The notes under the pieces: generated by a model
Databases searched by the model: none
Told to the model about the DNA's origin: nothing
What the model saw: only the letters and a program-made list of their open reading frames with translations
Program-made: the position numbers and the translations under genes
In this document: in pieces, positions 1,036 to 52,646 of the stretch
How positions within the stretch are numbered: the first letter of the stretch is position 1
How the letters are laid out: each line of letters starts with the position of its first letter
NCBI GenBank assembly: GCA_021735655.1
Contig: JAIPGM010000001.1
Coordinates: forward strand, 160,001-224,000
Source of the DNA: Candidatus Omnitrophota bacterium
GTDB lineage: Bacteria > Omnitrophota > Gorgyraeia > Duberdicusellales > 4484-171
Length of the DNA stretch: 64,000 nt
Direction: 5' to 3'

Positions 1036-4000
1036 CCTTTGGATAACGGAAAAAGCGAAAAAACTAGTCCAATCGTGCGAGCTCCGCCTTTAGATAATGG
1101 CAAGCAAAGCAAATCTCACCCGGCAGTAATTAGCGAATATGAGGTTTCACGGTTTGTGGCTAAAATAGCTCAAACCCGTCGTCAGGAGATGAGGGTAAAT
1201 ATTCGCTCTAGCTTAGGCCTTGAGTCTTTTATTAGTTTAGTTAAGGGGGAGCGTCTTGAAGCCCTTAGAGAAAAAGTTATAAATTTACATCAATCCGGTG
1301 TTAGGAAGATAGTTTTGATGAACGCTACTGAATCTGGTGGTGGCGTTGCCGAGATGATGCATGATATTGTTTCAGTTATGTGCAGCGCTGGAATGGCTGC
1401 TGAGTGGGTTGTTATGGATGGCCACAGTGCTTTCTTTAATGTAACTGTGCATATTCATGAAGGACTTCAGTCGCCAGCCAAGGAAGATATTTCTTTAGAG
1501 GAAATAGCTTTGTTTGACGAAGCCAGTATCGGAAATTTTGAACGCCTTGAGCAGGATGGTTACTTTGATGGACTTGATTTATTTTTTGCCGAAGACCCTC
1601 AGATAGTCGGTCTAATACCATTGATCAGGGCTTTTTATCCAGAGGTTCATCTTGCTTGGCGTTGTCATATTGACACCTCTACTCCTAATCGTCAAATTGC
1701 CGAATTTGTTAGCGATATGGTTAGCGGCCGTCTTGATCCAGTACGGGATAAATTACTCTATGACTATCTTTTAAAGCGTTTAATGAGAGAGGGTATGATT
1801 GGAGCAGCAGTTGATTTTGAACAAATGATGCAGGCTAATTCCCTTTCGGTTAATCTTGCCCAAGTTGCGACTAGAAGATTGTTGGCCGATATAGCTATTT
1901 ATCACACCGAAGAATTTGCTTTAGGATTACATCTCCAAACTAAAGGCGTGCCAACCTTTATTATGCCTCCGGCAATTAACCCTTTTAGTTATAAAAATAT
2001 TCCCCTAGCTGATAATTTTATTCGGGCAACTATGGTTAAATATGGTTTAGATCCCAATAAATTTACGGTTGTTGAAATATCACGTTTCGATCCTTTTAAG
2101 GGGCCGCTGGAGGCCATTCAGGCTTTTGTGCGTTTATTTTTGGATAATCCGGGATTGCAGAATGATTTACAATTTGTTTATGCCGGAAATATGGCTGACG
2201 ATAACCCTAAGGGAAAACGCGATTTTGAAAAGATCGATGCCTATTCTCGCTATCTTAGAAAGAAATTTCCTAAACTTAGGAAAGCCTTGTTTTTGCTCGG
2301 TCTTGGGAATAAACCCGGGACAGTAGCCTTAAATTGGGCCCAGAGACGCAGCTTGCGTGTTGGTGGTCAGTTTGCTCGGCCATTTTCTCGGAAAGAGATA
2401 GGTCGACTCAACGGTGTTGAGATAAATGCTCTTGAGGTTAATGCTTTACAGCAACAACTTGAGATGGAAAAAAGAGACGGTAGGTTAGTTATTTCTTTAC
2501 CGCGTAAAATAGCAATACAGCCTTCATCAAAAGAAGGTTTTGGCTTAGTGGCGGCTGAGGCTACCGGAAAAGGTACTCTGGTTATCGCTTCTTTGATCGG
2601 TGGCCTTAAAGCGCAATTAAAGGATTTGCTTGCGCAAGCTTCTTGGTTGGGCATTAACTATACGCCGGAGGAAATTAGTCAATCTTTAGAGGTGTATGAC
2701 TCAATGGATTCTGATCAGCATAGAGGTGTTGTTTTCGATGTGGCTTATTTGGAAAGAATTAATTTATATCAACGGCTTAATCAACGAGAATTCGTTTTGG
2801 GTTTAGCTACCTCTCTGCGGGTGGCTTACGAACTGGCTCATAAAAATCCAGATGTCTATCGAGAGCTCGGTTTAGCTGCACGTTGCCAGACTTTAGATAA
2901 GTTTATTACTCTAGCTAATGTTGAGAACCGCTTAGCCGCCGCTTCCTTGATTGTTGATAATCAGCAGCCCTTGGATAATGGTAAGCCAGAAGTTCCGATG
3001 CCTTCTTCTTATTGGATCGATCATAGCCTTCTTCATGAAATTGATAATGTTTGGGCTAACTTGGATTGGATTAATCCCGGGCCAAGTTTAAGCATAGCTC
3101 GCCAGATTGAGAAAAATTTTAAGCCAGCACAAGAGCCAGGTTTTTTAAGAGTTAGCATAGATGCCTTTGGTCCGCTTAACGGATTTAAAAATCAAGTATT
3201 AGCTGAACATGAGCAGTATTTTGATTCCGAGGTTTATAAAGATTATCGAGCTGGCATAATTCATGCTATTGATAATCTTTGGCAACACGGCGGAAAGTAC
3301 GGTGCCTTATTTTTGATGGCTCAGCTTAGAGGACGAACCGTACGCTTTACTTATTGTTTGCTAGATCGCGGTGATGGTTTTATTAATGACGATTACAACC
3401 ATGTTCGTTTAGAAGAAGCCGTTCAGGCACATAGAACATTTAAACGAGCCGGCAAGAATGGTATGGGCCTTTATTATATGGCGATAAAGCCGGATTATTT
3501 TTCAATCACCGCGGTTAATTGCTACCGGGCTGTTGCCACAACTCAAGCTCACTATTGGGAAACTGGCTACACTAAAGAATGGCCGTTTTGCCCGCAACAA
3601 ACTCCGGTTAACAAGGGGGTGCGGGTGATTTCGGTAAAGGATGTAGCTTTAGGCCTTTTGCCATTTTCGAATATGCAGCCGTTAGATAATGGCCGTCGAA
3701 CTGATGAAGAACGCCTGGATTTTATCGGATTTTTAGTTGAGTCATATTTAGAGGCTTTATTTACTTTCCGGAGGTTAAGAGCAAATAACAGCGAAGTAGC
3801 CGAGATGTATCTGCCAGCAATTTCCGAAACTGCCGTTAGAAAGAAACGAGCCAAATGGGTAGTTACAGCTGTTGAGGTTGCCCGTGAGGCATTTCAGGTT
3901 ATGGCTCGAGCTGATTTTCGACATTCATCCGGCTTAACCATTCGTTCAATCTTTGATTCAATTTTGGCTTCTGGCGGTCGCAACCAAGCAGCTAATGATC

Positions 4001-7000
4001 TAGGAGTCGATCGCGCTAGCCTTACTCGCTGGATGCATAGCTTACCTAATGATTTATTAGGTGGGTTAGATCCAGAATTAGCAGTCTTCAAACAAAGAAT
4101 CCTTGATTTATTTGATGAAAACAATACTCGACCCCTAGACAACGGTAAAGAAAATATAGATTTATTAGCGGTTACAGCAGTTAAAAGAGAGGACACCTCA
4201 CCGTGGCTGGCGGGCCCTCTCTCTGCTGTAGCCCCTATATATATAGGTAAACAGCAGGGGCCGCTAGATAACGGCCGAGCGCCTTTGGATAATGGCCAGC
4301 CAGCTAACTTTTGGAAAGTTTTGCATTCTGGTATATACGTACTTCCGATATATTACACTCGACTTTTCGATACAGCTAAAGACGCAGGAATTGGAAAATA
4401 TACTTATGTAGTGCCGTTTGTTCGTGATCATGTATTGTCTTTAGGCCATCAAGCGATACTTTTCTTACCGTTTTCTTTGCAGTTACCTTGGTCGCAATCT
4501 CCTTATGATGCGGCTGATTGGCGTTATTTTAATACTGATTATATTGATTGGGGGCTTATCCCTGAGGCTCAACCTTTTCTAGGTAAGTTCGATTATTACG
4601 GTCATTCACAGCGTAGCGTTGATTTTCGATCAATCCGGCCACGTGAATTATTAATCGGAAAGGCCGCCTTTCTTAATCTCAGAGACAATCGAGAAAAACA
4701 ATACCGCCAGCGCTGGGAAGATTTTCAAAGGTTTGTTAACAATCAGCGAAGTAGAGGGCCGGAGTGGGATTTAACCCATCTTGGTCATTACCGGGCCTTC
4801 AATGATGTCTTGGGTAATGATTTTGGTTTATGGGTTCATGAAGGGATGTATTGCCCTAGGCAGGATACCCATCCAGATGTTATCAAGTACAACGTTGCTG
4901 AGCAAAATAAAAATATGCAATATTCAGATTTAATTCAGTTCTATCAATACCAGCAATGGATTGCTTTCGGCCAGGCTCGCGATATGCTTGAAGGTTTGCG
5001 CAATATTGGTGTCTTTTATCTTTTAGATAATCCTTTCTTTCATGCTAAGGGTGGTATTAATTTTTGGACCCAAAACATCATTTCAAGAGATAGGCATTAT
5101 GAATTTTTTGATCGTTCACCCGGTGTACCCGGAATCGGTAGTGACCCTGAACAATTCTGGACATCTTTGGTTCCTTGGAATTGGCCTAGATTAAGAGAGT
5201 TGGACTATGAACCTTTCTTAAACCCTTATCATTATTATTTAGGTGATTTGGGCGCTCAGGGAGTTCGGGCTGATGCTATTCATTTTCTTTTTCCTTGGAT
5301 TCATTGGGAACGCGGTCCTTATGCTGCTAATTTTCAGAGTTGGGAGTCCCCGGGTCATGATTTACTTTGGAGATTAGACAACGTTTTTAATTCTTATGGA
5401 GCTTTCAGGCTTGGCGAGTTACTTGGCCCGGGTTTTGAAAGTATTCAGAGAATGGGCTTTGATAATTATCACTGGCATTTCTATCGGATGTGGAAATGGG
5501 GTGGCGGACCTGATTTAAATCCGGGTTGGAACGCAAAAGCTTTAGAGTTACATGATGGGCCGCGGGTTTGTGTTGACCATGAACACGGGTTCTATCCTTA
5601 TGCCGGACACGCTTATTTACGGCATCGTTTGGAGGGCCCGGGCGGTCTAAAAGAATTAAATAGTCGTTTCCTTTTAGGCAGTTCGGATATAGCTATGGTT
5701 TATGCCGGAGATGAAGTAGCCGACAACTGGTGGATAAATAACCCTAATCTGCCTGAGTGGATGATGGATCGTAATTGGGCCACTCGAATGCCAATGCAGG
5801 GCGATCAGGATTTTGATCTTTCAGTAGCCTTGTCCATGCTTGAGCATCGCCGTTGGATTGGCCAGCGTCTAATTGAGCGGACGCCTTTGGATAATGGTAA
5901 GCAAGAGTTTAATCATCTTAGCTTGGTTGAATCTAACGGTGAACAAAAGTTATACTCAGCCAGTAGTTTAGTAATATCTCAAAGGGGAGTCTATTTAAGC
6001 CCGACATCAACCGGGCCGAAAGAGGTAATTTCTCAGATTCAACTTAGCCCAAGCGGAATTAAAGTTTCCGGGGAGTTAACTAGCCAGGAGCCAAAATCCC
6101 GGCCAATAGATTATCGTCACTCTTATGAAATTAACTTTTATTTTGAAAAATTAGCTAAAGCCTATGGCCGCGGTTTGTTTGTCGGTATCAATGACGTACA
6201 GCTTTGGATTCGTCTTAGCCAGGCTTTGGGTGATTTTTTATGGGGCGTTTTGCGTCTTGAAACAGGGATTTTTGATATTCCCGATAGAAAATTACGACGC
6301 CTGGTGATTCAGGAAGCGCTTTATCATGAGGTGATGACTAGTGCCTTGGGGCTTTCAGTGGCTAATCGCGGCTTGCGTGAGTTTTTTGCAACCATTTTAA
6401 GTGTCAGCCATTTTTGCTATCTTAGCGAGATAGCTAAAGATCAGGATAAGCTTAATTATCGTTTAGGGATTCTGCAAGCTCTTGATCGGGGTTTAATCCA
6501 GATGAGTGATTCACTGGCTGGGCTATACCGTCAAATTGCCGAGTCTGGCAGTTTACCTGATCCAGCAACCTTGGTAAAAGCAGTTATAACCCATATTAAT
6601 GAAGAAGAACGATACCATAGTGACCGGCGTTCATTTAGGGATTATGTTCGAACTAAGTCCGAGAATTTTAGCGGACGCTTTACAGTCGGAAATCTTACCC
6701 AGGCGGTATTAAATGATTCAGCTTTACAGTTAGAGTTACAGGCAGAGTGGACAAATTTCTTGGGATTTTTAGCTAATTCACAAACCGTAGCCCGTGCCTG
6801 GCAGCCGAAAATTAAATTTATAAGAGGTCCGCGGGGCATAAAGGTTATTAATCCCCAAGGCGTACCGGATCAAGGCGGCTATCAATTCCAGCTGCAAAGT
6901 TTCCGGGCAATTTTTGACTGTTTGGGTTTGCCTAATCCGCTTAGTGAGCCAGCTGCCCTAAATAGATATTTAGGTTTTCTGCCTGAGCCTCCTGAGTATG

Positions 7001-10000
7001 ACTCCCAAGCCGTAAATTTACCGGAGTTAAACATCAGTCAAATTTTACCCGGAGTAGCTGTTGTTTATCCGGATAGTTTGGAAGCTAATCAATTAGCGGT
7101 AAGGCGAGCTTTGTATGAATTGATGAATTTTCGGGTTTGGAAGTTAGCCGTTGAAATACGTGGCGCCTTAGGTACAGAAGATGCTTTGTTTTTTGATCAG
7201 CATTGTCAGGTACATTCCTTTGTTGATGTAGCCCAAGGGTGGATGTTAGATTTAAATCCCCAAAGCCCGATAGTCTATGATGATGTTTTACCCGGCGGCC
7301 AAGCTTACGAAGCGCCGGAGCAGCCGGATTTAGCCGAACATGAGCGATTGCATCAAAAGGCTCAGGCAGTTTTTTCAAAAGTTTGGGCAATCACTATGAA
7401 CAGGTTCTTGCGGGATCAGCGGATGTTTGGCGGTGAAGCCGTGGGTTTAGTTGGCTTTACTACAACCGTACCAATATTATATCGTTACATACAGCAATGT
7501 AAGCATTCTGAGCCGGAATACTCACTACAGCGACCTTTGAATAATGGCCTAGGCATACTTCAATATTTACAATCTTTACGTCGTAGCCAGGAAACCGAGG
7601 CTGCTAGAAGGGTTAGTCTAGACCAAGGCTTTGGGCAATTAAAAAGTTTATTAGTTGAAAAATTACAGTCGATTGATTCAACCACTTTAAGCATTGCAAA
7701 TCTTGATCAGGCTTTGAATGAAGATAGCCAGGCGATATTTTTAACCTTAGAGCAATTAAGAGAGGCACGCTTTCAGGCTGAGAGCTTTCGTAATGGGCAG
7801 GTAAGTATGTGTGATCTTGCTAGCCTAGCTTTGGCCGCTGCCAGCGAAGAAGTTTTTGGCCAGAGACACTTAGTTAAAATAGTTGTTGGCTATTATCGGG
7901 TTGATGAGCAGCTATATAAAAAACATTATTGGGTTGTGATTGATGAAACATTGTTGATTGATATAACTTATGGTCAGTTTGATCCGGACCATCTCAATCG
8001 TATTTTAGTTGCTACAGTAGATGATTACTTGAGATTAAAATTAGAATATGGTACAGAGTTAGAGCCGCTTGATAATGGAAAACAAACTCAAGTTCAGCCT
8101 ACTTGTTTAGAGGCTAGGTGGTGGAATAATTATTATCCCGGGGTTATCGAAGGAACTGGAATAAGGCCGACTGCCCGCTCACTTAGCTTTGAGCAGATCG
8201 AAGAAGTGGTTTGTCTATTACTTCTCGATCAAGCCGGCCAGGAATTGGTAGCTAAAATAATAAATAGAGAACTGCCCGATGTATATCCTTCGGTTCGAAG
8301 AACCGCTCTTAAAGCTATGGTCAGGTTCGATCATTACGAACTTTTTGGCCCGAAGATAATTACTTGTTTGCAGGATGTAGTCAGAGATGGAGCTGAGATG
8401 TATCAGCCTTTTGCTCTTTATGCTTTGGCTCAGACCCCGGCTTTTAATGGCCCGGTTGCCAATAGATTTGCCGAGGAAGCACTTAAGGGGACCCTTAAAC
8501 CAAGCCCAAGAAAGCCTACCGCAGCCGAAAAAACTGCCTTACAGGAAGGGTTAGAGCCAAATACTCAAGCGATTAGATTTAAATCCCGGCTTGCTTCAGT
8601 TGAATATTTAAAAGGAGTTTTAGCTCAACGTCAAGGTTGGGCTCGGGTTTGCCTCGGAACAGTACCACATTTTAGTCGGGTTAGCAATCGCGCTTTAATC
8701 AATAAATTTGCTGCTCAGGTATTAGCAGCTGATAAAAAGCTTTCTTCTAGTTCAGCTCAGCGACGCCAGAAAGATAAGTCAGAATTTTGGGGTCTTGAGC
8801 AAGCTGAGTTTATTCATCCAGCTACTGGCCATGAAGCTTTGGTTGAGCTGGCCAATGATCCGGAGTTATCATCTAGTGATGAAAGTCCTTTGGTTGATCA
8901 AATACTACATCAGATGGAGGAATTAGGTTATGTGCCGATATTGCGACCCAGTAAATTTCAGCTTACTGAGCCAGCTCAAGGTCAGGAAGCTGAAATTGAT
9001 CGCGAGGCGCTTTGGACCAAGGATGCTGTTTTGATGATTTCTACTAAATTCGGAATAGTTCCGGTTTCTTCAGCATTAGCCAATCTTAAGGGCGGTGAGT
9101 TCGTCAGTGGCTATGGTAAGCGCGGCAGCTTTATGATTATTCCGGCAGCCGCTCTAAATTCAAAACAGCAGCTATCTGATATAATTCCCGAGGTTCCGAT
9201 TCATGTATTTCCTTCGGGATTTTTGGTGATCAATGATCAGGGCGTAATTCGTTTAAGAGGAACCTCGCATATTGACACTTCTTTAGGAGCAATTCCGATT
9301 ATGGCCCGGCCAGAATCAGGCCAGTTGATGTTAATCGATCCTTTGTTGCATCAGGTTGCCCGTACACACCCTCGCTATCGCGATCACTATCAATCAGTAG
9401 TTCAAGAAGATGGAGTGCGTTTTATTGATGTGCCCGAGCCTGAACGTCATTTAAATCCTGCTAATTTTGGTATTCTTCCCGGTGGAGAAATATTTATGCC
9501 TTATGCGCCGCGGACTAAACAAGTTTTAATTGAGGCTGGGGTTAATGAGCAGTATATAATAATGTTACCAAGTGAATTTAATAAGTATTTACCAACCCTT
9601 CATGTTTTGGCGGGGAGTATTGGCTGTTTAGTGGCCCAAGCTTTTCATCCGGTTGAGAAGCGAGAGCCGCTCGACAATGGCCATGAAAAAGAAAAACGGC
9701 AAACTAGATCCCGAGCAATAGATATATCAACCAAAGGTGCTGAAGATTTATTGTTTACTGAGCTTCAAACAGGGAGTTTAGTTAGTTTAGTGGTTGATGG
9801 CCTTGAGTATTGGCTTAGCCTTGACCAGGGCGATGAAGTTTGGTTTGATTTATATCGGCCTAAAGATGATATCATTGGCTATATTTATTTTCGAAATGAC
9901 GCAATGCCAGCCAGAAAAATAGCCAATTTTGGCGGCCCGAGCATTGTTCCGGCTTACCGGGGCAGGCATTTGTCGCGAGTTCTTTATTTTGTTTATTTTC

Positions 10001-13000
10001 GTTATCTTTGGCGCAATAATTATATCCCTGAAGAAGACTGTTTGACTATCGATGATCGATTGGCCCTAAAGCTTTATCATGAAGCTAAAAAGTTTTATTA
10101 CGATCAAGACCATACCTTTACTCCGTTTCAGATTATTCCCCGAGCCGAAAAGACTAAAGCTGCAAAACCTTTAGATAATGGCCACGATATGGTTCAAAAA
10201 CAATTATTTGAGTTAATTAAGCGTAAGTCAGATTCGATTAAAACTTTCTTAGAGCCGTTTGAAGCTTGCCTTGCTTACAATGGAGTGTTAGCTTTGCTGA
10301 TTCGAGGAAGGCCTGACTTGAGCGTTAAATTTTTGCTTAAGAAGATTGGCTCGGCTGAGCATTGGTTTTTACTGGCTGAAACTGTTTTAGGAAATCATCA
10401 GTTTGTGGTTGATATTTCGCCGCAAGGAAAGATGTTTACCGATATTGAGGTGCTGGTTGTAGATTGTGCTGAAGCCGGAAAAATAAATTATCTATATGAA
10501 GATTATACTGTAGTTAGCGATCAAGAAACCGAAAACTTATTGCGAGCCTTAGCAAGACAAAAAGGGATGAATGAGTTCTTGCATTTAGTTCATCAATTAC
10601 CAGAAGAAAAATGGATAGGTAGGTTACCGGATAGTGACCAGTCGATGCCACTTGATAATGGTAAATTAATCAATGAAGGTTCAGAAAGTTCTTTTTCCGA
10701 TATAACTAATTCGATGCGGGTGACTTTTGTTATGCCGATGTACAATGAACAGCAACGCTTACTTCCCAAGACTTCTGATAATCCCTATGGTGAAGATGCT
10801 TTAAGGGTTAAAGTAAGTCAATTTAGAGAACTCGAGCAAGAAAATCCTAATTTCCAGTGGCGGCTAATTGCCGTAGATGACGGAACTCCCGGGTTTGCTT
10901 CAGCCAAATGCCTTGAGCAGATTTTGGCTGAGATTGATGCCCAGAATCGGGAATTTAATATCTATTCTAAAGTTTTCGTAGTGGTGATAACTGAACAAGA
11001 AAAGAAACTCCTAGGCAGCCGAAAGGGTGGAGCGGTTTTGCGTGGCTTTCAAGAGGCCCTAAGCCACGGTTGGGCTGATTATATCGGGATTACTGATACT
11101 GATATTTCCAGTAATGTTAACCAAACTAAAGATTTGATTTTGGCTCTTCGCAAAGGTGCTGGAGTAGCCATTGGTTCACGCCGCCAAAGCGGGGCCGAAG
11201 CTCGCGGCATACCGCTTTTAGGGAGAGTTAGCACAGTTATTTATAATTGGTGCATTCGTTTGATTTTGTGGCCGCTTTTTTCAATTCGTGATACCCAGCG
11301 CGGTTTTAAACTTTTTCAAAAAGAAGTAATTGTCAGAATATTACCCTATGCTCGCGATCACCATCTTTCTTTTGATACTGAACTGTTACTTTTGTCGCGT
11401 TTAGCCGGATACCAAATAGCTGAGGTGCCGATTGTCTGGATTGATTCAGCTGAGGCAACTACTTTGGTTATGTCTAAAGATGCTCCAGCGATGCTCTGGC
11501 GAGTGATTAAACAAGCCCGCCATATTTTTAATAATCCTTTTCGCGGCCAAAAGCCGCTCGATAACGGCCGAAAAATAAATCTATCAGTTAGAATGCTCAG
11601 AAAAGCTAGATTAATTACTGTTCATGTTGATGCTGGAGATTGTCCAGCCGCCTTAGCTAGCGCGATTGATAAATTAGTTTCGGGTTTAGGGCAAATCCAA
11701 GTAAGCCGTAGTAATATTGTCTTAAACACCGCCCATCAGAATAGCCCTATGGATATTGTTTCGTCGGTAGGCTCTCTCTCAACTGAACAGATAACAACTT
11801 TATTTCCTGAAGCTGTTTTTCTGATTGCTGGCGGCAATGTGTTTAAATGCTTAAGAAATCTAGTTGAGTCATTGGCTGTCGGCTCAGTGAACAAGCGAAC
11901 TGTTAGGATTTTTGTTCTTTACGATTATACCTATGGCCAAGGCTCTAATTATAGCCCTGAGCAATTAGCCGGTGAATATTATGATTATTTTAGCGATATG
12001 CTTTCAGTCTATAGTGATAGGTTTAATCTAGCTGTATTTTATCTTGCTCAGAATCAATTCGAGCAGGAAATTTACGGTAAAAATTTATCCGGGCCCAATT
12101 TATCTTTAGCAATTATTGAAAAAGAAGCTTTAGCTAGTCAAGTACCTTTAGATAATGGGCGTAGTCTTGGGGAGTTAACTGCCGAAGGCTACAACTTAAA
12201 GTTTCTAGCCCGCAGTTCTGATTTAAGAATGACTGCCCATTGCCGAAGAGATGTAAGTTTTAATAGTTATCTTTATGATTATCGCCTGGATCCAGAGCAT
12301 ACTTATCGTCAAGCCCAATTAGTTCCTTTAGTTGCTCGATCGGTTAAGGAAAATGCTTTTAGAAAGTCTTCTGATTGGCAATACTTGCCGCAGCATTTGA
12401 AAGATTTATACGATTCCGGTAAAGTTTTGATGATTGCTTCCCGAGCCCAAGCTAAAGCTAAGCCTAGCCGGTATTCAGCCTTAGTAATTTCTGGCAGGAC
12501 TGAGGCTTTTAGCGGCCGGATGGGTATTTTACTCTATGACAATCGGCCGATCATTGTTTCAATTTTAGATAAGCCTTTTTTCATTGAAGCTAAAGGAATC
12601 GGGGTTGCTCAAGGAGGTTTTAGCTCAGTGCATCGGCGCTCGGGCCATAGATATGAAGTTACCGGGGCTCAGCGTTGGCAAGCTTCCTTAAAAGAATTTA
12701 CCAGTTTAGAGCTTGAGCGAAAAATCAGCCGATTTTTTGGAACAGCTGATACCCCACGCGCCTTAGCGGCGATAGTCTATAAATATCCTCAAATGGATCA
12801 GTTAATTAGTGATAGCCTAACTAGCCAGGCTGAGCGAAGAGAAGCTAAAGAGCAGTTAGGCGATAGTTTAGGGATAATGTTGCGGCTTTCGCCTTCGAGC
12901 CGCCGCTTTGCTTATAATTTAGAACAGCGTCACATTAGAATGCTTGGTGAAGCTTCAGCCCGCCTGCTTTGTTCTTATCTTCCCCGAGTGCATACTTCGC

Positions 13001-19000: not shown

Positions 19001-22000
19001 CTTTAGATCTAGGGAGATTACTGGCAATGAAGAGTTTTGATGACCAATTACAGGGGGCGGTGGTTTGGATAGCTAATCCAATTAACCCGAAAACTAAAGA
19101 GCCAGTATTTGGTCCTGCTGATGTGGACAGAGTAAATCAAGCTCTTGCTGAAAGAGGTGTTACTGCTATTTGGGGTGATCAGACAGTAGTAAATGAACTA
19201 ATTTATCAAAAGGCAACCGTGCTTTTTCTGGCTGCAACCGCTAATGTTATTAGTGAACTTTCTCAGGTTGAAAGATTGCAGGTTAAGATTATTTCTGAGG
19301 GAGCTAATAATGCAGTTAAACCTGAGTTAAGAGAGCCTTTAAGAAAAGCTAATGTATTTTATATTCCTGGTGAGCTTCTTAACGGCGGGGGCATATATGC
19401 TTCTAAGGAAGATATTCGGCATAACCATACCGATGGATCAGAATTAATAAGGCAACATCGGCAATACTATTATATACATGTAACTGATGAGATCGACACA
19501 TTGGCTCTTCACCGAATGATTTCTTTCCTTGAGATTTGGGCTGAGTCAGCAGGAAATTTTTCTTTTGATTTAACCGTCCATGTAGAAAAAGTTGCCGGCC
19601 GGATTTTTGAAGCAGCTGATAATTTGGTAAGAACCAATAATACACGTTTGAGAAAATTTACCCAAATTGATCAAAAGAGAACCTTTGATCATCAAGCCGG
19701 CCGGCCGACTTTGCCTTGGCGTCATAGTCTTTATGAAATTGCCATTGAAATGGCACCAATGGGAATACTTTATCATTTGCGGGATGTCGGTAGACACTTA
19801 TCTTTACTTAATAGATTTAAGGTTGCAATAAAGGAAGATGGTCAGATAGATAATTATCATATATGTCGTCTGCGTTTTGCTTTATTTGAGTTGACCAAGC
19901 TAGGCTATTATTTAAAAAGTAACCAGCGCAGAAGGTTAATCGGCCTTCTTCCTGGAATAATTACCGATGAAAAGTGTGATGGCCTATTAAGGAAAGATGC
20001 CATGTTTTGTTTGGCAATGGCAATTAGGTGGCAGGAAGAAGAATCCTGTAAATCTGAGGTAGATCGGGCAAGAAAATTATATTTAGGCATATTACAAAAT
20101 CCCCTTGAAAGTGCTCAGCTGCATACCTGGGCTCAGCATTGTCTCTATAGGATTTTCGGAGAAAATTACTTCCGGCGGATAAGCGCTGATTTTGATCGCT
20201 TAAACGGAGTTAACTTACCCAAGCCGCTTGATAACGGTCGGGATAGTTCGGTCGGGATTACCTCAGAACCGTTAAGAATTTTAGCCGAGCTAATTTCGAA
20301 TAGTTATCGGACTAAGGCTTTAGTAGAATTTTTGCAGCCTTTCTTAGATTGTGAATCTGTTAATTATTTACAAGAAGAGATAGCAAAGCATTGCCAGCTA
20401 CCGGCCTGGGGTGTTGTTTCTTCTAGCCATTATCTTGATGAAGGGTATTTCTATTATGGTTTAAAATCCGGTATTGATCGCTGTCTCGAAAGAGGAGTTA
20501 TGGTTGAGAATGACGGTAACAGATTATACGTTACTAAAGATTCAGAGGATACCGTAAAATATAGCGGCCTTGACGAAACTCAAGAAAACCAGTGGGGAAT
20601 TTTTATTTTTCCAAGCGAGTATTTCAATCAGGCTATCAATTGCGGTTATGCCGAGGCCGGCTTAAGGCTTTCACATAACCGCTTAGGCATAACTACTTAT
20701 CCATACTTCAAAAGTTCTTTATCGCTTGCGCCGGCACGCTTTCTGATAATTGATAGATCTAAGGCAGATGAACATAGGCACCTGGAAGGCCAGCCGAAGC
20801 TAAAAGATAAACTTCAAGCCTTGACCGAAGCAGGATTGAAGGTTCTATGGTTGCCGGATTCTTCCGGCCCATTCTTTGACCCTGATTTCCAATATGCTTT
20901 CGGGGAGTTGTTGTTTAGTAATGATATTCCGGAAACCAATCGCTTTCTTTTTTATCCGTCCGCAGATACTCAAGATCTTACAAAAATCATCTGGTGGGTT
21001 TTACAGTCGTTAAGAATGAGTAGTATAAAAAATCGGCTATTACATAATATGGAGTTAGCTCGGCAATTTAAAAAAATCGGCCCCTTTGATAATGGGCGAG
21101 CTGATTTTACAACAGCAGACGAACAGATCGGTAATCTTTTTGCTGAGGCAGTTATTACAGGAGATAATGTTTTAATTGAGACTCATTGGGATGCTGTAGC
21201 GGCTAAGAGAGGCGGCAGTTTGAATATTTTAGAACATGCTGGCTTAAGGATTACAAGAAGTTTAGCTTTAGGAATTGTACCGCGGGCTGGTGAATGGCCG
21301 GATAGGGTTGAAACCGATCAAATCATTCTGAGTTCATCTCGCTATGGTTGGATCGATTCTGAAAGAGATATTGAGCATTTGTTAAGCGGCTTTGATCAAG
21401 CCAGATTGCTTAATTCGTTTAATCTTGGCCATTATTATCAGGGTTGTCACTATCGAAGTTTCCTAAGCTGGCTAGCGGTTTTAAAGAGTAGTCATTTCCC
21501 GGCAGTTATTTTTCATTTCATAGGTGAGCTAATTAATTCTTGGGGTATTAAGCCAGCTGCTAAGAGTGATTTTCCAGTTTTGGCCAGTCGAAGGGATATC
21601 TTTTCTTTCGTTAGCGTGCCTTATGTTTCAGATATAGAAAAATTAGATTTGCCAGTTGCAGTGTTTTTTGATGGTAAGCTTAGTTCGCTTAGGCGTGGCG
21701 ATAGCCGGAAACAGCCAACTTTAATATTAGCTTATTGGCAAGCTTTGAATGGTTTTATTGGTTTTAAAGAACAGATAGCTAGGGAAACAGCAGAATTTCA
21801 GAATACCCCTTTAGATAATGGCCGCAAAGAGCATGACATCTCTGATAGTACGGTAATCCAATGGCCGCTTAATGTAATTGTTAAAGATATGCGCGGTTTA
21901 TCCAAAGGCGAGATATTAGCTGTTGTTAAAACCGGTAAAATATTTTGGGGAAGGGAAATAGTAGGAGCTATTTTTTCTGACCGCAATATTGTTTTTGGTA

Positions 22001-25000
22001 AAGTGGTCGATGATAAGTTTATAGTATTTGATGATTGGTTAATTGAAAGAATTCCTGGAGGATTGTTAGAGGGGTTGCGGAGAAGCATTTTATTTTTGCC
22101 TTATTTAGGAAGTATTTTAAGAAACAAGACATCGTCAATAAATAAACCCCTGGATAATGGCAAGAAATATAATTATCGGCAAGTCCTAGAGATGGTTGAC
22201 TGTTTTGATAGTGCAAGGTTAGAGGCTCACTTATTTAGAGCTCTTGGCAGAGTTGAGACTGAAGCCGTATCTATAGCTGGTGATATTATTAGGGCGGCTA
22301 GAAAATTTGAACGGATAACTAAAGCAGTAAAATCTCTTTATAGGAAAACTTACGGCAAGCTACCTAATTTTACTCTTGCTTTCGATCCTTCCGGTCAAGG
22401 TATGTATGGGGCGTATCAGGAGGATGATACAGCCGGATTTTTTGATCATATTGGCGTAGCTCCAGAAGATGTGCTGCTTGAGGTAGGCAGCGGCGATGGA
22501 AGCATTTCGGATTTCATGGCCCATATGTTTGGGATTAAGGCAACTGGGATTGAGGTTTGGGAGCCATATTATCATTACGCAGTTTTCTTAAGAGATGAAG
22601 CAGTAAGAAGAAGATTCATTCCAGAAGGTAAAGTAGATTTTTTAAATAATAATTTAGTAGATGTTGATTTTTCAAAGTATTCTTTAGTGTACTACGCTGC
22701 TCTTGGCACAAGAAGAAAAAGTGAGCTGGCTGCTAGATTGCTTGGGGTAAGAGAAAAATCCAGGATATTAATTCGGGGTTCACCTGATGAGTTAGTGGAA
22801 GGGATTATCGCATCACATCCTGATTTTAGCTTAAGGAAGCTTGAGATAGAAGTTAATGAAAACCTTACTGGAATTAAGGCAAGGGTTTATACTCGAGAGA
22901 CAATTACCAGTTACCAGCCGGTTCTCGACGTTCCTCTAGATAATGGCCGAAAAAATAACCCTCAGATGGTCAGAGCGCGCTTAGCCGCATTTGAAAAATC
23001 AATCGAGGGCATCGTGCCTAGGGCAGATCCGCTTTATGACCATTTAATTCGTTTTTATCAATATCCTTTGAATAATTTGGGTGAACCTGACGAAGAGACC
23101 TATGTAAGGAATAATACCAAGGAGCAGGAGCGGGAGCTTCTTAGATTCTGGGCCGGCCATTTCGGCCTTCCTAAAAATTACGGCGGTCATGTGACTATCG
23201 GAATCGGTCAGGCTGAATATTATGCCATGTACGTGGCTAGCAATCGATTTCCCAAGGCTATATTTTATATTTCTAATCAGGTCGATAGCCTTCTTTATGA
23301 TACTTTACAGGTGTTGGGCATTGATCAAGGAAGAATAAAGTTAATTAGGTCTTTAGAGAATGGCGAGATCGACTATGGTGATTTAAAGAGAAAGATTAGG
23401 GAGAATTCATCATGGCCGGCGGTGGTCTGCTTGACTGCTGGCAGATTCCTGGGGGCGGTTGATGATTTAGGAAAAGTGGAAGGAATTTTAGGGAGCCTGG
23501 GCCTAAAGCATAAACATATTCATTGCAGCATGTCACCGTTAAGTATAGGCCAGTCGTTTTTGGAAGATGCGGCAAAGATAGATTTTCAACATGGCTTAGA
23601 TAGCATGAGTCTACCGTTGTATCATTTTGTAAGGTGTCCGATGCCAGGAGTCATCGTTCTTACCAGAAGGAAATACCTTCAGAACATTGCTTGTAGTCAA
23701 AAAGCAGCTGAGTATGTTAACTCTAACGACACCACTAATTCTGGATCACGTAGTGGTCATGCTCCGCTTTATCTTTGGTTTGCTACAAAAGTTATTGGGA
23801 CTAAAGGATTTAAGGCTCAGGCTGAGCGGGCCAGGGAAGTTTGTGTTTCTATTAAAGCTCTATTTGACCGTTACGGTTATCCTTGCCGGTTCACCGCGCA
23901 AAAAAATACAATAATCTTTGAGCCACCATTTTATGAGTTGCGTCAAAAATGGGGCTTATTATCACACGGGCAATGGTCCTGTTTTGAGATTGTACCTTAT
24001 TTGACCCCGGTTGAGATAGCCGAATTTGTAAGTGATCTTTTAGGTGATCATTCTCAAGCGGTAGCCGCCCCGGTAGAAACCGTATTTCCGGAACGGATTG
24101 TCTATGAACCGTCTCCGGAAGTCTTAGATGTTTTGGATCAATTAGAAGCAAGGATCCAAATTTTGATGGAAAGATTTTTAGGATTTCCGGCAAATATCGC
24201 CGGCAATGAGACATCTTTTGCTGCCTTGAGCAGCTTGTTTAAATACACCTTGAGAAAAAAGGATGTGGAAGGTTTTCGACACGAAGCCTTGAAATTTTTT
24301 ACTGATCTTTACGGTTTAAGGTACGAAGATTTTTACTGCGGCATAACTGCTGGAGGAACCTGGGGAAATCGGGTTGGCCTATTAGTTGGCCGGGAAAATT
24401 TTCCCGGCGGGATACTTTATTACAGTCAGGATTCGCACTACTCGATTGATAAAGTGGCCAGGAGCCTTAACATGGAAGTAAGAAAGGTCGCCTCTTTGTC
24501 TAACGGCCAAATTGATTATGATGAATTAGCCGAAGCCATAGAGGAAAATCGTGGCCGCCCGGTAATTGTAAATCTTAACATCGGCACAACTATGAAAGGC
24601 GCTATCGATAATCCCCAAAGAGTTATTGAAATATTAAGAGAACAGGATGTTACTGATTACTATATCCATTGTGATGCCGCGCTTTTTGGTATGATTTTAC
24701 CGTTTCTCGAGGCTGCGCCAAAAATTGATCTGGCTAACGGCGTCCATAGTATTGCCATATCCGGACATAAATTTCTCGGCCTACCGATGCCTTCGGGCAT
24801 ATTCATGGTTCGGAAAAATTGTGCTAGGGATAGATTGATAACTATTTCGGATCGATTATTGACTGCCCAAACTGGCCATGTCATTTTGTATTTTTGGCAG
24901 GCTGTTGCTAGCCGAGGGTATGAGGGTTGCAGAGAAGAAGCTATGGCTTGTGTGGATAATGCCCAATATCTTTATTACAGATTACAGGAAAGGGGATTGC

Positions 25001-28000
25001 CTTCGGAGGTAAACCCTTTTTCCAATATAACAATGTTTTCCCGGCCATCGGGTAGCCTAATTGACACTTGGCAGTTAGCGCCTTGCGGGGACCGCGTCCA
25101 CGTAGTGGCCATGCAGCATGTTACCAGAGATAAGATTGATGCTTTTGTCCAAGAGTTAACTAGGGATATGCAGCAAGGGCAGATAGAACTAGCTAGTTCT
25201 ATGCAGCCTCTTGATAATGGTAGACGGCGCAAAGCATCGCTAGTGCCAGAGGTAGGCCTTGATGAATTAGTTGAAAAACATTTAGGAAACTTGAAGTTGA
25301 TATCTTCTGAGTATGGAAAAAGCGTAGGCATGTTATCTACTATTTTAAGACGACCAGACAATGAGAGCCTTCAACAAAGAGCAGAGGAGTTGAGGAAGAT
25401 TGGTCCTGGCCGTCTGGCCTTAGCAGCTGACTTAGGCGAATTCGGAGTAGATAGTTTGAAAATTGGTCAGAAGTATGGCGTTGGCCGAAGAACAGCGGCT
25501 AGTTGGCTTGTTAATAATGGATTTGGCGATAGGGTTAATAGCGCTAGATATAGTCGAAGTAGAACATTAAGACGTCAAAAAATAGCTCAGGAATATGAGC
25601 CGATTGCTCGCTTATTAGATGGTGAAGGCAATCTTTTACAGACATTTTATACCCATATTTCTTGGAAAGAGGTATCTGCTTATCCTTTCGCTGTTTTAGA
25701 TGAATTAGAAATCCAAGCTACCGAAGTTTTAAGTTATGGTGGTAAGCAATGGGGTCAGTTTAAGGGGCATGCTGGCCATAGAGCTCGGATAACATTGGAG
25801 TGGGGCTATCCAATAGAAGTTGCTATGTCTAGCAAAAGAGGAGTTGATCAAGGTAGCTATAGAGCCATGCAGCTTAGGACCTATCAGTCAACTCTTTTTG
25901 ATAGAGAGGGGGAACTCTTAGATACTGCTTTTTTCGTTTTTGGTTACGATGAAGATTTATGTCGGGGAACAACAAAAGTTGTTAACTATCAATTAACCAA
26001 GGCTGGAAGAATTAGTATTTTTGGTGATGAACAAATACAGCTAATAAAACATAAACAAGCCTGGGCTAATTTAGTTGCAGTGGATGGAAAGGTGGTCAGG
26101 GCTACCATTCTTGATAGAGAGGGCGGGAATGAGGTTATTACTTATAATTTTTCTCGAGTGTATGATGAAAACAACCGAGTAATTTACACTTTTACTGGAG
26201 GTTTAGAGTTTAAGCAAAGCAGTGTGCCGCCTGCGTTGTTGAAATCTTTAGCTAGAGGAAGAATTGAAGGTATTTACCTAAAAGGTGGTCGTGGCAACTT
26301 AACTATTGGCGGCAGAACTTGGGTTGTTTTAAGTGACTATAAAAATTATCCATGTAGGGCTTATATTGAAGAAGGGCTTGTGGTCAGAGTAGAGGTTTTA
26401 GGTGAAGAAGGAGAGGCTGTTTTTACCAAGCATTCTCACCGCCTTTATGATAGAGAAGATAACTTTGTCGAAGTATTTTATGATTCTATTTCACCAGAGC
26501 GACTTAACCAGGTTGGTTTGTGTCGTAGCAGTCCACTTATTGTGACTCCTTCAGGAGAGTTATGCTTATCTGGAAATCGTTATACTTTTGAAAATGAAGG
26601 CGGCTCTAAGGCTATTGTTTGGATTGAACCCGGAGTTAAGTTCACCAGAAATAGAAAGCCGGATGGTAAAGCAGTTAGAATTGATTTTTATGATCAATAT
26701 ATGCATTATAAGCATACCCGTTATGCAGTCAGAATCTATGAAGATGAAGGAGTTTTAATTGATACTTTTTTTGGTCCAGGATATGCTGAGAAGCTAAAGA
26801 TTTTTGGTGATGTAATTGGCTTTGCTCAACTCGATACGTTAGGTTCTCTTAATATTGGCTACACAACCCATACCTTTACTAAATATGGTGACCCTCGACA
26901 TTTTGTTAGATTTAGTCTACACCAGGCTCAAGTTCTGGATGTAGATGTTCTTGGCCATGACTATTGTCATATCGATAGAGTTGGCTTTGACGCTTGGCCT
27001 GATATGGCTATCGATCACTTTGAAATGGCCCGAATTGTTGATGAGCAGGATCAGCTATTACACACTTTTTGGTACGGTGTTTATTCAGAACGGATTCCCA
27101 ATAGAGGTAGAGCTAGAATTTTAGGGGCGACTTTTACTGCCGGAGGTCACCTGCGACTTGGTAACGAAGATGTTTATCATGATGCGAACTTTCCCGAAGC
27201 TAGAGTAAATGTTACTTATATTGACGGAGAAGTAAGTGAGATATTAATTTATCAGGATGCTCAAGGCAACTCAGTAAATTATCATTATACTAAAAAGCAG
27301 ATAGATAATTATAAGCGCAGAGTGCAATATTATAATCTGCGCGGTCATGTATTCGAGCATGCTTTAAGAGTTGCCTTACCTTTTTTAAGCGACTGCCCTT
27401 TTGATTATCAAAAGCGCATTGGTGGTGAAGTTGATGGGTGGGTTGATGGTGAAGCTGAACCAAAGCCAGCTGATTCCAGATCACTTAAACGTCCAGATTT
27501 TACTAGTCCTTTTAGCTGGGCAATGAGTGAAGGGGTATTGTGCTATATTGATGCTAAATTCAATCTTAGAATTAAGTTTTTAATAGAATATCTAGAGGCA
27601 ATTAAAGAGACTTTAAGAACTGATTATTTTACTGATTGTGATGCCCCAGTTGAAACACATTTTGTAGGAAGAGTTATATTTGAGATAGTTTATTTAGGCA
27701 GAGTAAGTGAAGCTAATGTAGAGGCAAAGTTAGCTGGTCATCAGAGAAATTTTTCAGCTACCAATTCTGAGATGCTCACCTTGAAACCAGTTAGCTTTCT
27801 TGATGAGTACGGAGATAGGCTTAAGACCGCTGGTCAGGATACTTTAGTAAGGTTTCTGAGACATCTGAGAGTTTTTCATTATAAGCCAGGTCGCAAGAAA
27901 GCCTTAGATAGCTATTTAGCCCAATTAGAACAGGATAAAATTCCCGAGATAGCCGATGAGCAGACTAATCTTTTTTCAAGGCCGCTGGATAATGGCCGAG

Positions 28001-31000
28001 AAAGATTATTGGTTAGTAGCGGTAATAGTCATTTAAAAAGTTTTCGTGAGGCGAAAGGTTTATTAGCAAAATTAAAATGTACAGACATTTTTGGGGTTGT
28101 CATGGGTTATCGCGCTGCCTTAGCTGATAGAGATAATTATCAGAGAGTATTTGCTCGTGATTCTGTTTGGATGGGGTTAGCCGAAATGCTTTCCGGCTGT
28201 AAAGGTAGTTTAGCTTTAACATTAAGCGTATTAAAACATCATCAATGTCGGTACGGACAGAGACGCGGGGCTATTCCGAGTAACATTTCAAGGTATCATC
28301 GGGTAAGTTATGGGACAACTAGCCCAAGAATTGATCCAACCCTTCTTTATATTGTTAGTTCTGGCCAATATTATCGGTCCAGACCAGCCTATTTTCAAAA
28401 ACAGTTTCTCGTTGAAAATTTATCGCCGCTACAAAAAGCTATAGCATATTTAGAAAGACAATGGGTTATGGATAACGGTTTATTGTTTATTCCGATTGCC
28501 GGAGATTGGGCTGATGAATATTTTCAACAAGGCCTTGTTTTGTATGATGAAGTTTTATGGTATATGGCACTTTCAGAGTATGCCTACCTTTTAGCTGAAG
28601 ATAATAATTCTAATTCAGAAGTTTATCAAGCTAAGGCTGCTTGGGTAAAGAATATAGTCAGATCCAAATTTTGGATAAATAAAAATCCCGGTCAAGGCAA
28701 TTTGGGGCATTTCCGTCATTTTTTCAATCAATTACAAAGCCCGAATCAGGCAGCGACATTTGGCTGTCCCTATGATAGCTTTGATGCTTTTGGTAATATT
28801 TTGGCAATTCTTTCCGGCGTGGCTACAGAGGAGCAAACTGCTCAGATAATTAAATATATTGATGTAATTTCAGAAAATAATCAGCCATTACTGGTGCCGG
28901 CACATTATCCGGCAGAAGAAGTTGAACATTTTGTTCACACAGGTGCTCCGTATCGGTATCAATTTAAGAATAATCCCGGGTGTTATCATAATGCTGGTTT
29001 ATGGTCATGGTATACAGGTTTATATGTTGCGGCATTAGTGAAAGCCGGCCGATTAGACCGGGCGGCTAAATTTTTAGAAGGGGTACAGCTAGCCAATGAA
29101 GCTAAGGACTCAAATGGCCGGGGGTATCATGAGTACCATACTAATATTCCCGGTCAATTGAGTAGGCCGGGTGGAGTTAGCAATTTAGGTGTCAGCGCTG
29201 CTGGTTATATAATAGCTCACCAAGCATTTTTTAAAAATAAGATTGTTTTTGGTCAGAATCATCCTTTAGACAACGGCCGTCAGATGCCTGATTATTTTTC
29301 TCCGGTTGGAGACGTCAATGTAACTCTTAATAGTTCTTCAGAAAAAGCCCCCCTTGATAACGGAAGAAATTATTCCAGTTCGCCAATATTTCAAGAGACA
29401 ACCTTTACCTATTGGTTAAGAGTGAGTTTATATTTATTAAGATTTTTGCTTAGTGCACCTTATTATTTTATTATTACTTTAGTTGTATCAAGAATGATGA
29501 AAGGAAAAAACATTTTATTTGTATCTTACCGTATTAATGAATTTGCTTTAGATGGAGTATCTTTAGAAATAAAAGAGTGGCGAAATCTTTTATATCGATT
29601 GGGCGCACATATTTTTCTATTTTCTGGTCATAGCAAAATTGTTCAGGATGGAAGTATCACCGGTCAGGCTCCGGATTGCATTGAGAGTGATTTTCTTGCT
29701 GAACAGGCAACAAAAATAAGAGAGAAGATTGAAAGAGAGGGAAAGCTAGATGCTGAAGATTTTGAATTAATTCATAGAGCAAAAGAGATAATTAAACGCA
29801 ATCTGCGTAAGTGTATCTTGGAAAATAATATTCACTACATTGTTTCGGAAAATGTATTTTGTCTACCGGGAAACCTCGCTCTTGCCGAGGCACTTATAGA
29901 ACTTGCCGAAGAGTTTCCTCGGTTAGGTTTTATTTCTCATAACCATGATTTTTGGTGGGAACGATCCCGCTATTCAAAACATATTCGCACTGATTGTGCT
30001 AGTTACTTAGATAACCTTCATAATCGAATCCGTCGCCAAACAGTCGTTGTTATAAATCAAGGCCAGTTGAGAAATATTTCAGATCATCTCGATGCTGGTT
30101 TGCACAAAGTATTTATTGTTCCGAACGTAAGAGATTTTTCCCGAAAGCCAAAAGTAGATCATTCGTGCGTAGCTAGGCTTAAGACTTATCTAAGACAGAG
30201 GCACGGGATTACTGAAGATTGCCATGTATTTTTAGCACCGGTAAGGCCCGTTTATCGAAAGAATTTAGAACATGCTATTGATGGTTTGGCTAAAGTTCAG
30301 GAAGAAATGGGGGAACCTTTGCTATTTGTTGTAAGCCATAGCGCCCAAGATTCTCAACCAGGTTACGTTGACCAACTAAGAGCTCGGGCTGAAAGCCAGG
30401 GTCTTAAATTTGTTTATCTGGGTGAAGAAGTGCTTTCCGGTCAGTTTAGCTTAGAGACGATATATGCTTTTTGTGATATGGTCATTGTTACTTCTACCTG
30501 GGAGGGTTGGGGTAATGCCACGCTTGAAGCATTTTATTACCAGAGACCAGTTATTGTCTGGCCGTACCAGGCTTACCAAACCGAGATAAAGCCTGTAGGG
30601 CTAAGTTGCTTAGAGGCGCCTGAATTTTCTTCTGAGGTCATTACTTCGATAATTACGGTTTTACGATTTACTTGGTTGAGAAAAAGAATTGCTAGAGGGA
30701 ATTATTGGTTAGCTAAATTACATTTTTCTTACCGAAGGCTTACAAGAGTATTTTTTAAAGTATTTAATAATTTAGAATCTGCCGAAACCAAAACACAACA
30801 ATTTCCGCTTGATAATGGTAAAAAGGGTGAGGGTTCTAAACCAAAACAAAAATTATCTCCTTTCGAGAGATTTAAACAAGACATAGACGAGCTTCTTAGC
30901 AATCCCCAAATCAGGCAAGTAAGCGTAGACAGTATTCTTCAATTTTACGGCCCACGGCTGAAACGCGATGTTGTTGAGGCCCATCTTAAAAGTAAGGGTT

Positions 31001-48741: not shown

Positions 48742-48747
48742 AGTTAA

Positions 48748-49566: not shown

Positions 49567-49591
49567 ATAAGCAAAATTGTGAAAATTTAAG

Positions 49592-50464: not shown

Positions 50465-50467
50465 AGG

Positions 50468-52636: not shown

Positions 52637-52646
52637 AAATTTACAT

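Follow-up and report, generated by a model that had tools for sequence, protein, structure and literature searches.

Giant open reading frames (ORFs) are common in Omnitrophota (PMC10066038), and published work on them takes the proteins as single membrane-anchored chains. The 'multi-enzyme metabolic cluster' giants have been defined as a class, in a paper that covers 900+ proteins of at least 10 kAA and leaves cleavage, linkers and motifs unmentioned (Nielsen & Lui 2026 preprint, 10.64898/2026.06.07.730766). The 'Archaeovorins' are rich in glycosyltransferase (GT), methyltransferase, glycoside hydrolase (GH) and peptidase domains; autocatalytic cleavage via C39 or S8 domains has been speculated for them, the cleavage points being stated to be unknown (West-Roberts et al. 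2023 preprint, 10.1101/2023.11.21.568195). Here we describe a giant ORF on contig JAIPGM010000001.1 of a Candidatus Omnitrophota metagenome-assembled genome (MAG; GCA_021735655.1), within a stretch of 64,000 nucleotides (contig positions 160,001 to 224,000, forward strand; hereafter the window, by whose numbering all positions are given). It encodes about 25 gene-sized modules and 6 short spacer or tail peptides, punctuated by copies of the peptide PLDNG that are mostly followed by arginine or lysine. Judged from sequence, the product may be a polyprotein that is cut at the PLDNG sites, a reading to which we assign a probability of roughly 0.5.

The giant ORF shares with the class of Nielsen & Lui its phylum, a single ORF of at least 10 kAA and many enzyme Pfams tiling the chain; it shows the defining features of that class, with many distinct Pfams, none of them dominant by copy number (PNP_UDP_1, TreT_GT1, Glycos_transf_1, GH77, GT2, Bac_transf, ELFV_dehydrog, Pyridoxal_deC and GH100). 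Sugar-metabolism GT and GH modules, methyltransferase and peptidase-like content are common to the giant ORF, the Nielsen & Lui giants and the Archaeovorins. Archaeovorins differ in that HEAT, C39, S8, SecA and dockerin domains are typical of them, whereas the giant ORF has no such Pfam matches and few transmembrane (TM) helices; it is not an Archaeovorin proper. Neither paper reports a junction motif, whereas the giant ORF has about 30 copies of a hexapeptide together with a transglutaminase (TGase)-like Cys-His-Asp module, M12. What is new is the strict hexapeptide punctuation in combination with an M12-type module; multi-enzyme giants in Omnitrophota are already known. The searchable literature holds nothing relevant on 'PLDNG' and bacterial or Omnitrophota polyproteins.

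The giant ORF occupies one stop-free frame (64..31038, forward strand; 10,324 codons and a stop codon). No stop interrupts this frame over nucleotides (nt) 1-63 either, so the true N-terminus must lie at the window edge or further upstream; the first start codon available inside the window is a GTG (nt 64), and the protein is possibly longer than 10,324 amino acids (aa). Membership of the Omnitrophota MAG (locus tags K9L86_) is supported by eight ordinary downstream proteins identical to NCBI proteins within MCF7907298-MCF7907318, which are encoded on a contig of 341 kb. Cutting the protein at the junction peptide yields 31 pieces (M01-M31), which were scanned against Pfam, NCBIfam and PDB sequences (Table 1).

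The junction peptide is present in 29 exact copies of PLDNG and one of PFDNG, against 0.009 expected from composition, and PLDNG is confined to the frame of the giant ORF, occurring in no other frame or gene of the window. The residue that follows is R in 17 copies, K in 9, H in 2, Q in 1 and G in 1 (R or K in 26/30), and the residues upstream are variable; an example of a junction-type peptide is SSKPLDNGRDSR. The 29 exact copies are encoded by 26 different 15-mers, with codon choice near the background of the ORF apart from mild deviations at Pro and Gly, and their 30-nt flanks are 27% identical, which equals random. Because the codons vary and the flanks are unrelated in nucleotides, selection acts on the peptide and not on the DNA. 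The same variation, with the lack of Rfam or tRNA matches anywhere in the window, rules out a DNA repeat or an RNA signal. All 30 copies lie between recognisable domains and never inside one, so that a single consensus stands at every unit boundary, as is expected of a polyprotein. K, Q, S, N and R are over-represented in the flanks and W, Y and C under-represented, as expected of what would be exposed linkers. Closely placed copies delimit five spacers of 7-43 aa, an arrangement of tandem sites reminiscent of processed precursors and their spacer peptides. M09 contains a degenerate PLNNG (aa 2491-2495; the next residue is Leu) that may be a decayed junction copy, in which case M09 would consist of two pieces, of 546 and 177 aa.

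In the polyprotein that these features suggest, hydrophilic linkers, each with P-L-D-N-G-[R/K], join complete enzymes whose functions range from sugar transfer and hydrolysis through amino-acid chemistry to methylation and nucleotide binding, as well as membrane modules. We infer that the hexapeptide would serve as both recognition and cleavage signal; that the cut would most likely fall after Gly, by analogy with papain-like and C39-type (double-glycine) proteases; and that M12 would be the processing enzyme, freeing itself in cis and then acting on the other sites in trans. A single translation unit would thereby supply separate enzymes at a fixed stoichiometry.

Outside viruses and synthetic biology, such a mode of expression is to date known only for a few eukaryotic precursors that are targeted to organelles. 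Viral polyproteins with embedded papain-like cysteine proteases include those of alphavirus nsP2, the papain-like proteases of arteriviruses and coronaviruses, and potyvirus HC-Pro; the likeness lies in one ORF for many proteins, a short junction consensus that ends in Gly, and a Cys-His protease-fold module just upstream of one site, whereas the giant ORF is a cellular bacterial gene for metabolic enzymes, its cleavage is putative and M12 has no significant match among viral structures (BFVD). Nuclear-encoded plastid precursors of Euglena and dinoflagellates consist of light-harvesting complex or RuBisCO small-subunit units joined by a conserved decapeptide linker. They too are cellular, non-viral polyproteins whose units are parted by a repeated short linker, there removed by a protease; they repeat the same or a similar protein in a eukaryote, whereas the giant ORF would join about 25 unrelated enzymes in a bacterium. 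Double-glycine leader processing by C39 and cleavage by the BTLCP protease LapG act on GG or AA sites and one leader, in contrast to the many internal PLDNG sites, and the giant ORF has no sequence match to C39 (PF03412) or the LapG family. Engineered 'fuse-and-cleave' nif polyproteins follow the same logic, combining unrelated enzymes with a fixed protease site for stoichiometric expression from few genes (PMC6130400); that system is synthetic and uses tobacco etch virus (TEV) protease and its site, and the giant ORF would be its natural counterpart.

The M12 family is very small, with only three relatives of the module among 1.84 billion representative proteins, all in multi-module proteins (one partial, of 488 aa, the others of 2,200 and 6,429 aa). 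Cys29, His60 and Asp77 of M12 are invariant in all 4 family sequences and correspond to Cys3402 (nt 10267-10269), His3433 (nt 10360-10362) and Asp3450 (nt 10411-10413) of the giant protein. In a confident AlphaFold2 (AF2) model from the four-sequence alignment (pLDDT 86, pTM 0.82), the Cys lies at a helix N-terminus, and the strands that come next carry the His and the Asp, one each, an arrangement that argues with moderate strength for a transglutaminase/papain-like Cys-His-Asp core fold. M12 ends directly at a junction, ...EKWIGRLPDSDQSM-PLDNG followed by K, where the predicted cut would lie at residue 3533|3534, and its homologue in the giant P0009 ends ...EKWIGAPLPTPDDRP-GGG followed by MSV, which is P0009's own recurring element. 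M12 is tentatively put forward as the most likely protease of the system. In the closest relative (P0008, 488 aa, partial), the order is a trypsin-like serine-protease remnant (GGWSGGPV), directly after it the M12-like module, and then a membrane segment and a methyltransferase. A metagenome scan with the M12-family profile gave no matches. Two further candidates for M12-like proteases, the M09 C-terminus and a small P0001 module, were rejected (hhalign probability 0.2%); the 177-aa piece of M09 has, by eye, a Cys...His...Asp pattern like a transglutaminase core and no match to the M12-family profile.

Other giant ORFs have punctuation of their own. P0001 (5,638 aa), which shares GT2 and methyltransferase modules with the giant ORF, carries the recurring peptide KPGSSDME (7 exact copies of KPGSS, 9 with near-variants, against 0.02 expected), and P0009 (6,429 aa) carries GGG[ML]S[VI] five times, each time with D or Q as the next residue and a conserved stretch of helix, about 60 aa long, after it. 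Private junction peptides are thus a feature of a subset of these giants. The contig of P0002 (L008, 1-34443 of 36 kb) encodes four consecutive giant ORFs (>1,091, 2,720, 4,945 and 3,175 aa) in which an HExxH domain of ~100 aa (NPNTLRGPP...RVIFEGHELFH) recurs four times between enzyme modules; it is possibly a built-in metalloprotease at the junctions. L009 (1-20870), which matches P0002 at 46% identity along 1,139 aa that cover several modules, likewise has a repeated HExxH domain of ~100 aa in place of a short motif. It is conceivable, at somewhat short of even odds, that some Omnitrophota giants are true cellular polyproteins with lineage-private junction peptides, from which an M12-family protease would release the enzymes in the present case and possibly in P0009.

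The original prediction had read the chain over 1105-30804, that is, from just past the second PLDNG junction up to just before the last one, as a complete glycan or glycolipid biosynthesis toolkit fused from formerly separate genes. Four of the enzymes it named are borne out (Table 1): a TreT-like GT4 (M03; TreT model 109 bits against a cutoff of 27, EX7E present as EGFGLVAAE, trehalose-forming activity putative), a second GT4 (M30), a PglC/WbaP-type phosphoglycosyltransferase (M16; Bac_transf 96.6 bits against a gathering cutoff of 27) and a pyridoxal phosphate (PLP) decarboxylase (M26), which proves to be a tandem pair. The module called a DPM1-like lipid-phosphate sugar synthase is a GT2 (M13; Glycos_transf_2 26 bits against a cutoff of 23.3, TDTD present), while the narrower label is not established: the match to the DPMS structure is weak and covers 127 residues, and M13 has no TM segment. 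Similarly, the supposed GH13-like alpha-glucan hydrolase (M08) belongs to the same clan and not to GH13, since GH77 is its sole and best match and the GH13 alpha-amylase catalytic domain gives none. The supposed GH63-like hydrolase (M28) matches no GH63 model and is instead GH100/alkaline-invertase-like, with weaker matches to GH94 and GDE_C, which are of a related six-hairpin fold. The methyltransferase (M25) falls short of the cutoff for DOT1 (22 bits against 23) and has a clean S-adenosylmethionine (SAM) motif I.

In M26 the C-terminal copy retains the PLP lysine (ISGHKF) and the Asp (IHCDAA), whereas alignment of the two halves places SLPLYHF and IHCSMS at those positions of the N-terminal copy, which lacks the PLP lysine and is probably the non-catalytic pseudo-subunit of an intramolecular dimer. 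The junction peptide is absent between the two copies, and such a pair would be expected to stay joined as a pseudo-dimer. Catalytic motifs are intact in the recognisable enzyme modules (EX7E, DxD, DELPQ, SGHK, RADAIH and Walker A), each of which is the equivalent of a whole enzyme with its catalytic residues in place.

A complete toolkit is an overstatement. Carbohydrate-active modules make up 2,812 aa of the protein (27%, or 37% with the methyltransferase and decarboxylase), and 13 of the 25 modules of at least 100 aa have no Pfam or NCBIfam match (4,847 aa, 47%). Phosphorylase-like (M01), amino-acid dehydrogenase-like (M21), P-loop (M20), membrane (M18) and cysteine-protease-fold (M12) modules, which the original prediction did not list, are present as well, so that the bulk of the protein is either of another kind or without an assigned family, and a complete pathway dedicated to glycans or glycolipids is unsupported. 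No flippase, polymerase or nucleotide-sugar enzyme is recognised in the giant ORF. The set of TreT, GH77 and GH100-like enzymes would be compatible with a trehalose or compatible-solute role.

Gene fusion describes the layout of the ORF better than its recent history. Stand-alone relatives of M13 of ~415 aa (P0004, 45% identity; P0006 and P0007, 32-34%) span essentially the whole module, and stand-alone homologues of M28 are ordinary genes in Bacteroidia and Vulcanococcus that cover residues 11-414 of 427; because such homologues span essentially full modules, the ORF is a concatenation of gene-sized units. Ancestral N-termini had been proposed to survive a few residues past the junctions, and the GT2 and GT4 starts offered as examples do resemble canonical ones. 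As a class they are indistinguishable from chance, Met falling within 30 residues past the junction in 37% of cases against 37% by composition and 35% at random positions. Junction-proximal Met residues carry no Shine-Dalgarno (SD) relics, and these two results rule out relic internal starts. An SD core is recognisable at only 4/20 downstream gene starts, and SD-led initiation appears to be little used by the host organism.

The closest relatives of M13, M03 and M12 are embedded in other giant ORFs (2,200-6,956 aa), M13 being 49% identical to a module of P0001, and the G+C content at third codon positions (GC3) is uniform over the modules and equal to that of neighbouring genes, leaving a recent mosaic acquisition of modules unsupported. 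Since the nearest module relatives sit in giants and GC3 is uniform, the fused layout points to an old, lineage-typical architecture, apparently not to recent stop loss in an operon. Total G+C is 0.41-0.43 in most of the giant ORF (window 1-26000) and 0.34-0.36 in the downstream radical-SAM cluster (38000-58000); GC3 is similar in both, about 0.30-0.36, despite this drop. An unfused cluster, which had been proposed as the pre-fusion state, was found at none of about 85 related loci: no homologues of other modules lie near the relatives of M13 or M28 (80 M13 metagenome loci, the M28 loci, and the contexts of P0005 and P0007). The 80 loci come from a metagenome scan with the M13 profile, and the match lies inside ORFs of <600 aa in all of them but L009, which is open across its entire 20.9-kb locus. 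The missing unfused state is weak evidence, because the collections searched hold no close relative of this genome. A scan of GTDB genomes with M25-M28, in which the source genome and its close relatives are absent, gave only remote stand-alone GH100-like genes. Homologue searches with chunks of 4,761 and 4,977 aa gave only 3 matches and none, respectively; such long queries lose sensitivity, since the decarboxylase module alone reaches 1e-70 against PDB.

Several observations weigh against processing of the giant protein by M12. The module has no Pfam match (E up to 1), no NCBIfam match and no peptidase model; its Foldseek E-values are non-significant, the top ranks being of the same fold classes; its fold superfamily also holds deamidases, acyltransferases and transglutaminases; and its C-terminal tail, PLDNG included, is disordered in the AF2 model. 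P0001 has a junction peptide and no detectable M12-like module, and P0010 has an M12-like module without a short recurring peptide. No such peptide is present in P0002, P0003 (Omnitrophica), P0010 or L009, so motif punctuation is not universal. The case for cleavage is drawn from sequence, and an orthologue in which site conservation could be judged is absent from the collections searched. It is rather unlikely that the protein is an uncleaved mega-enzyme or scaffold, a single chain of about 1.15 MDa in which PLDNG[RK] is a structural or docking linker or a short linear motif for a common partner. Asn-Gly is a classic type I' beta-turn, the existence of P0002, P0003 and L009 means that fusion needs no cleavage, and both the motif-free joint within M26 and the published treatment of such giants agree with a single chain. 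A purely structural turn, however, could do without six near-invariant residues repeated at 30 sites between unrelated flanks; tandem copies 7-43 aa apart make poor sense as hinges; and a protease-fold module stands exactly at a junction. Separation without a protease, by co-translational 2A-like peptide-bond skipping or by Asn-Gly backbone cleavage, spontaneous or autocatalytic, through a succinimide, would suit P0001, with its junction peptide and no M12-like module. The motif contains Asn-Gly, the most succinimide-prone dipeptide, and is loosely like the ...NPG/P of 2A peptides. This route is highly improbable all the same: the 2A consensus D(V/I)ExNPGP is not matched and positions upstream of the motif are unconserved, 2A skipping is not known from bacterial ribosomes, uncatalysed Asn-Gly chemistry leads mainly to deamidation and not to cleavage, and a disordered linker is no catalytic environment.

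Improbable too is the history implied by the original prediction, in which a glycan or glycolipid (or trehalose/compatible-solute) operon serving a single pathway was recently fused by loss of stops and starts. Two GT4 modules, a GT2, a phosphoglycosyltransferase, a GH77 and a GH100-like module are indeed all present and intact, the modules equal full-length stand-alone enzymes, and two further GT4 genes and ABC-2 exporters lie downstream. Against this stand the modest carbohydrate-active share and the large share without a family, the lack of a recognised flippase, polymerase or nucleotide-sugar enzyme, the chance-level Met and missing SD relics, the lack of an unfused cluster, and the uniform GC3 with the nearest module relatives in other giants; moreover, random stop loss would not leave one hexapeptide at every joint. 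As for an artefact, the sequence comes from a metagenome and the window truncates the N-terminus, so that an assembly chimera, a run of pseudogenes or a mis-set genetic code might be suspected of making a false long ORF. The probability of this is practically negligible: 31 kb are stop-free at 41% GC, all domain matches fall in one frame with catalytic motifs intact, read under table 11, the known alternative codes of bacteria interrupt ORFs and do not fuse them, and no RNA elements occur in the window. An independent Logan assembly of SRR12088349 has the identical sequence, with 0 mismatches in 21,719 nt; its matching contig stops at about window position 4224. Cleavage at the PLDNG sites is thus the reading that we prefer.

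Table 1. Modules of the giant protein, in window coordinates; each module ends with the junction PLDNG (last 15 nt) unless stated otherwise.
Module	Position	Strand	Assignment	Length (aa)	Matches and motifs
M01	64..1050	+	purine/uridine phosphorylase-like (PNP-like)	329	PNP_UDP_1 2.6e-7
M02	1051..1101	+	spacer peptide between two junction motifs	17	
M03	1102..2982	+	TreT-like GT4	627	TreT_GT1 1.9e-31; Glycos_transf_1 1.6e-9; TreT 2x6q 1.7e-34; EX7E intact
M04	2983..3693	+	no family match	237	
M05	3694..4146	+	no family match	151	
M06 + M07	4147..4296	+	spacers, tandem junctions PLDNGRAPLDNGQ	43 + 7	
M08	4297..5898	+	GH77 4-alpha-glucanotransferase-like	534	Glyco_hydro_77 3.5e-11; NCBIfam malQ models; nucleophile motif RADAIH
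M09	5899..8079	+	no family match; degenerate PLNNG at nt 7534-7548	727	
M10	8080..9681	+	no family match	534	
M11	9682..10182	+	no family match	167	
M12	10183..10662	+	transglutaminase/papain-like Cys-His-Asp fold (predicted)	160	end ...EKWIGRLPDSDQSM-PLDNG
M13	10663..11568	+	GT2	302	Glycos_transf_2 1e-5; DPMS 5mlz 1e-3; DxD (TDTD) intact
M14	11569..12159	+	DHFR-like match below threshold only	197	
M15	12160..14346	+	no family match	729	
M16	14347..15657	+	PglC/WbaP-type phosphoglycosyltransferase	437	Bac_transf 1.6e-27; PglC 8g1n 7e-13; DELPQ (intact) and GVRP motifs
M17	15658..15741	+	spacer peptide	28	
M18	15742..16464	+	polytopic membrane module, at least 3 hydrophobic helices	241	
M19	16465..17358	+	no family match	298	
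M20	17359..17883	+	P-loop NTPase-like	175	Walker A GMEGRGKS; weak AAA matches
M21	17884..20238	+	Glu/Leu/Phe/Val (Trp) dehydrogenase-like domain	785	ELFV_dehydrog 3.7e-12; NCBIfam
M22	20239..21096	+	no assigned family; ends in the single variant junction PFDNG	286	
M23 + M24	21097..22161	+	no assigned family; junction between them ends at nt 21822	242 + 113	
M25	22162..22947	+	class-I SAM methyltransferase-like	262	LLEVGSGDG; DOT1 1.1e-4, below cutoff; homologous stretch in P0001
M26	22948..25221	+	tandem group-II PLP decarboxylase copies	758	histidine decarboxylase NF002748 505 bits in 2 stretches; serine decarboxylase 8jg7 1.9e-70
M27	25222..27996	+	no assigned family; weak motif about every 95 aa	925	
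M28	27997..29277	+	GH100 / alkaline-neutral invertase-like six-hairpin hydrolase	427	Glyco_hydro_100 1.2e-13; 5z73, 5goo
M29	29278..29364	+	spacer peptide	29	
M30	29365..30819	+	N-terminal hydrophobic helix + GT4	485	Glycos_transf_1 1.8e-9; EX7E intact
M31	30820..31035	+	C-terminal tail past the last junction	72	

The hydrophobic segments of the giant protein number only about 6 and are confined to M16, M18 and M30. M16 consists of the phosphoglycosyltransferase with a hydrophobic helix and a C-terminal extension of about 220 aa without an assigned family. The repeats of ~95 aa in M27 (for example RVYDENNRVIYTF, RLYDREDNFVEVFY and RIYEDEGVLIDTFF), which BLAST self-comparison does not pick up, suggest a divergent beta-rich repeat array. 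A CheD-like Cys/His deamidase, in common with P0001 and P0009, was suggested for M19 by eye and is unsupported: M19 has no PDB profile match and its AF2 model is unusable (pLDDT 34).

Downstream of the giant ORF lies a large mixed gene cluster (window 31079-59590) with an Opp-type peptide ABC importer (5 genes), an amine oxidase, a methyltransferase, the two GT4 genes, the two ABC-2 exporters (one with a 1,155-aa ATPase) and six radical-SAM (rSAM) genes. It looks like a peptide or glycolipid modification cluster. Several of the rSAM genes are fused (788 aa; 1,284 aa with three rSAM and three SPASM domains; 722 aa; 1,052 aa with two B12-rSAM units), which shows this genome to be generally prone to domain fusion, and none of the fused genes contains PLDNG.

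Giant genes are a hallmark of Omnitrophota, and the giant ORF offers 30 candidate cleavage points of one consensus, at single-residue resolution, and a candidate protease with a named catalytic cysteine. The junctions also mark natural places at which to divide the protein into modules that can be expressed or subjected to structure prediction, and if processing is refuted, a linker element of such unusual strictness would still call for an explanation. If processing is confirmed, this organism would use a cellular bacterial polyprotein strategy for stoichiometric enzyme production, and would also yield a new short protease/site pair of possible biotechnological use.

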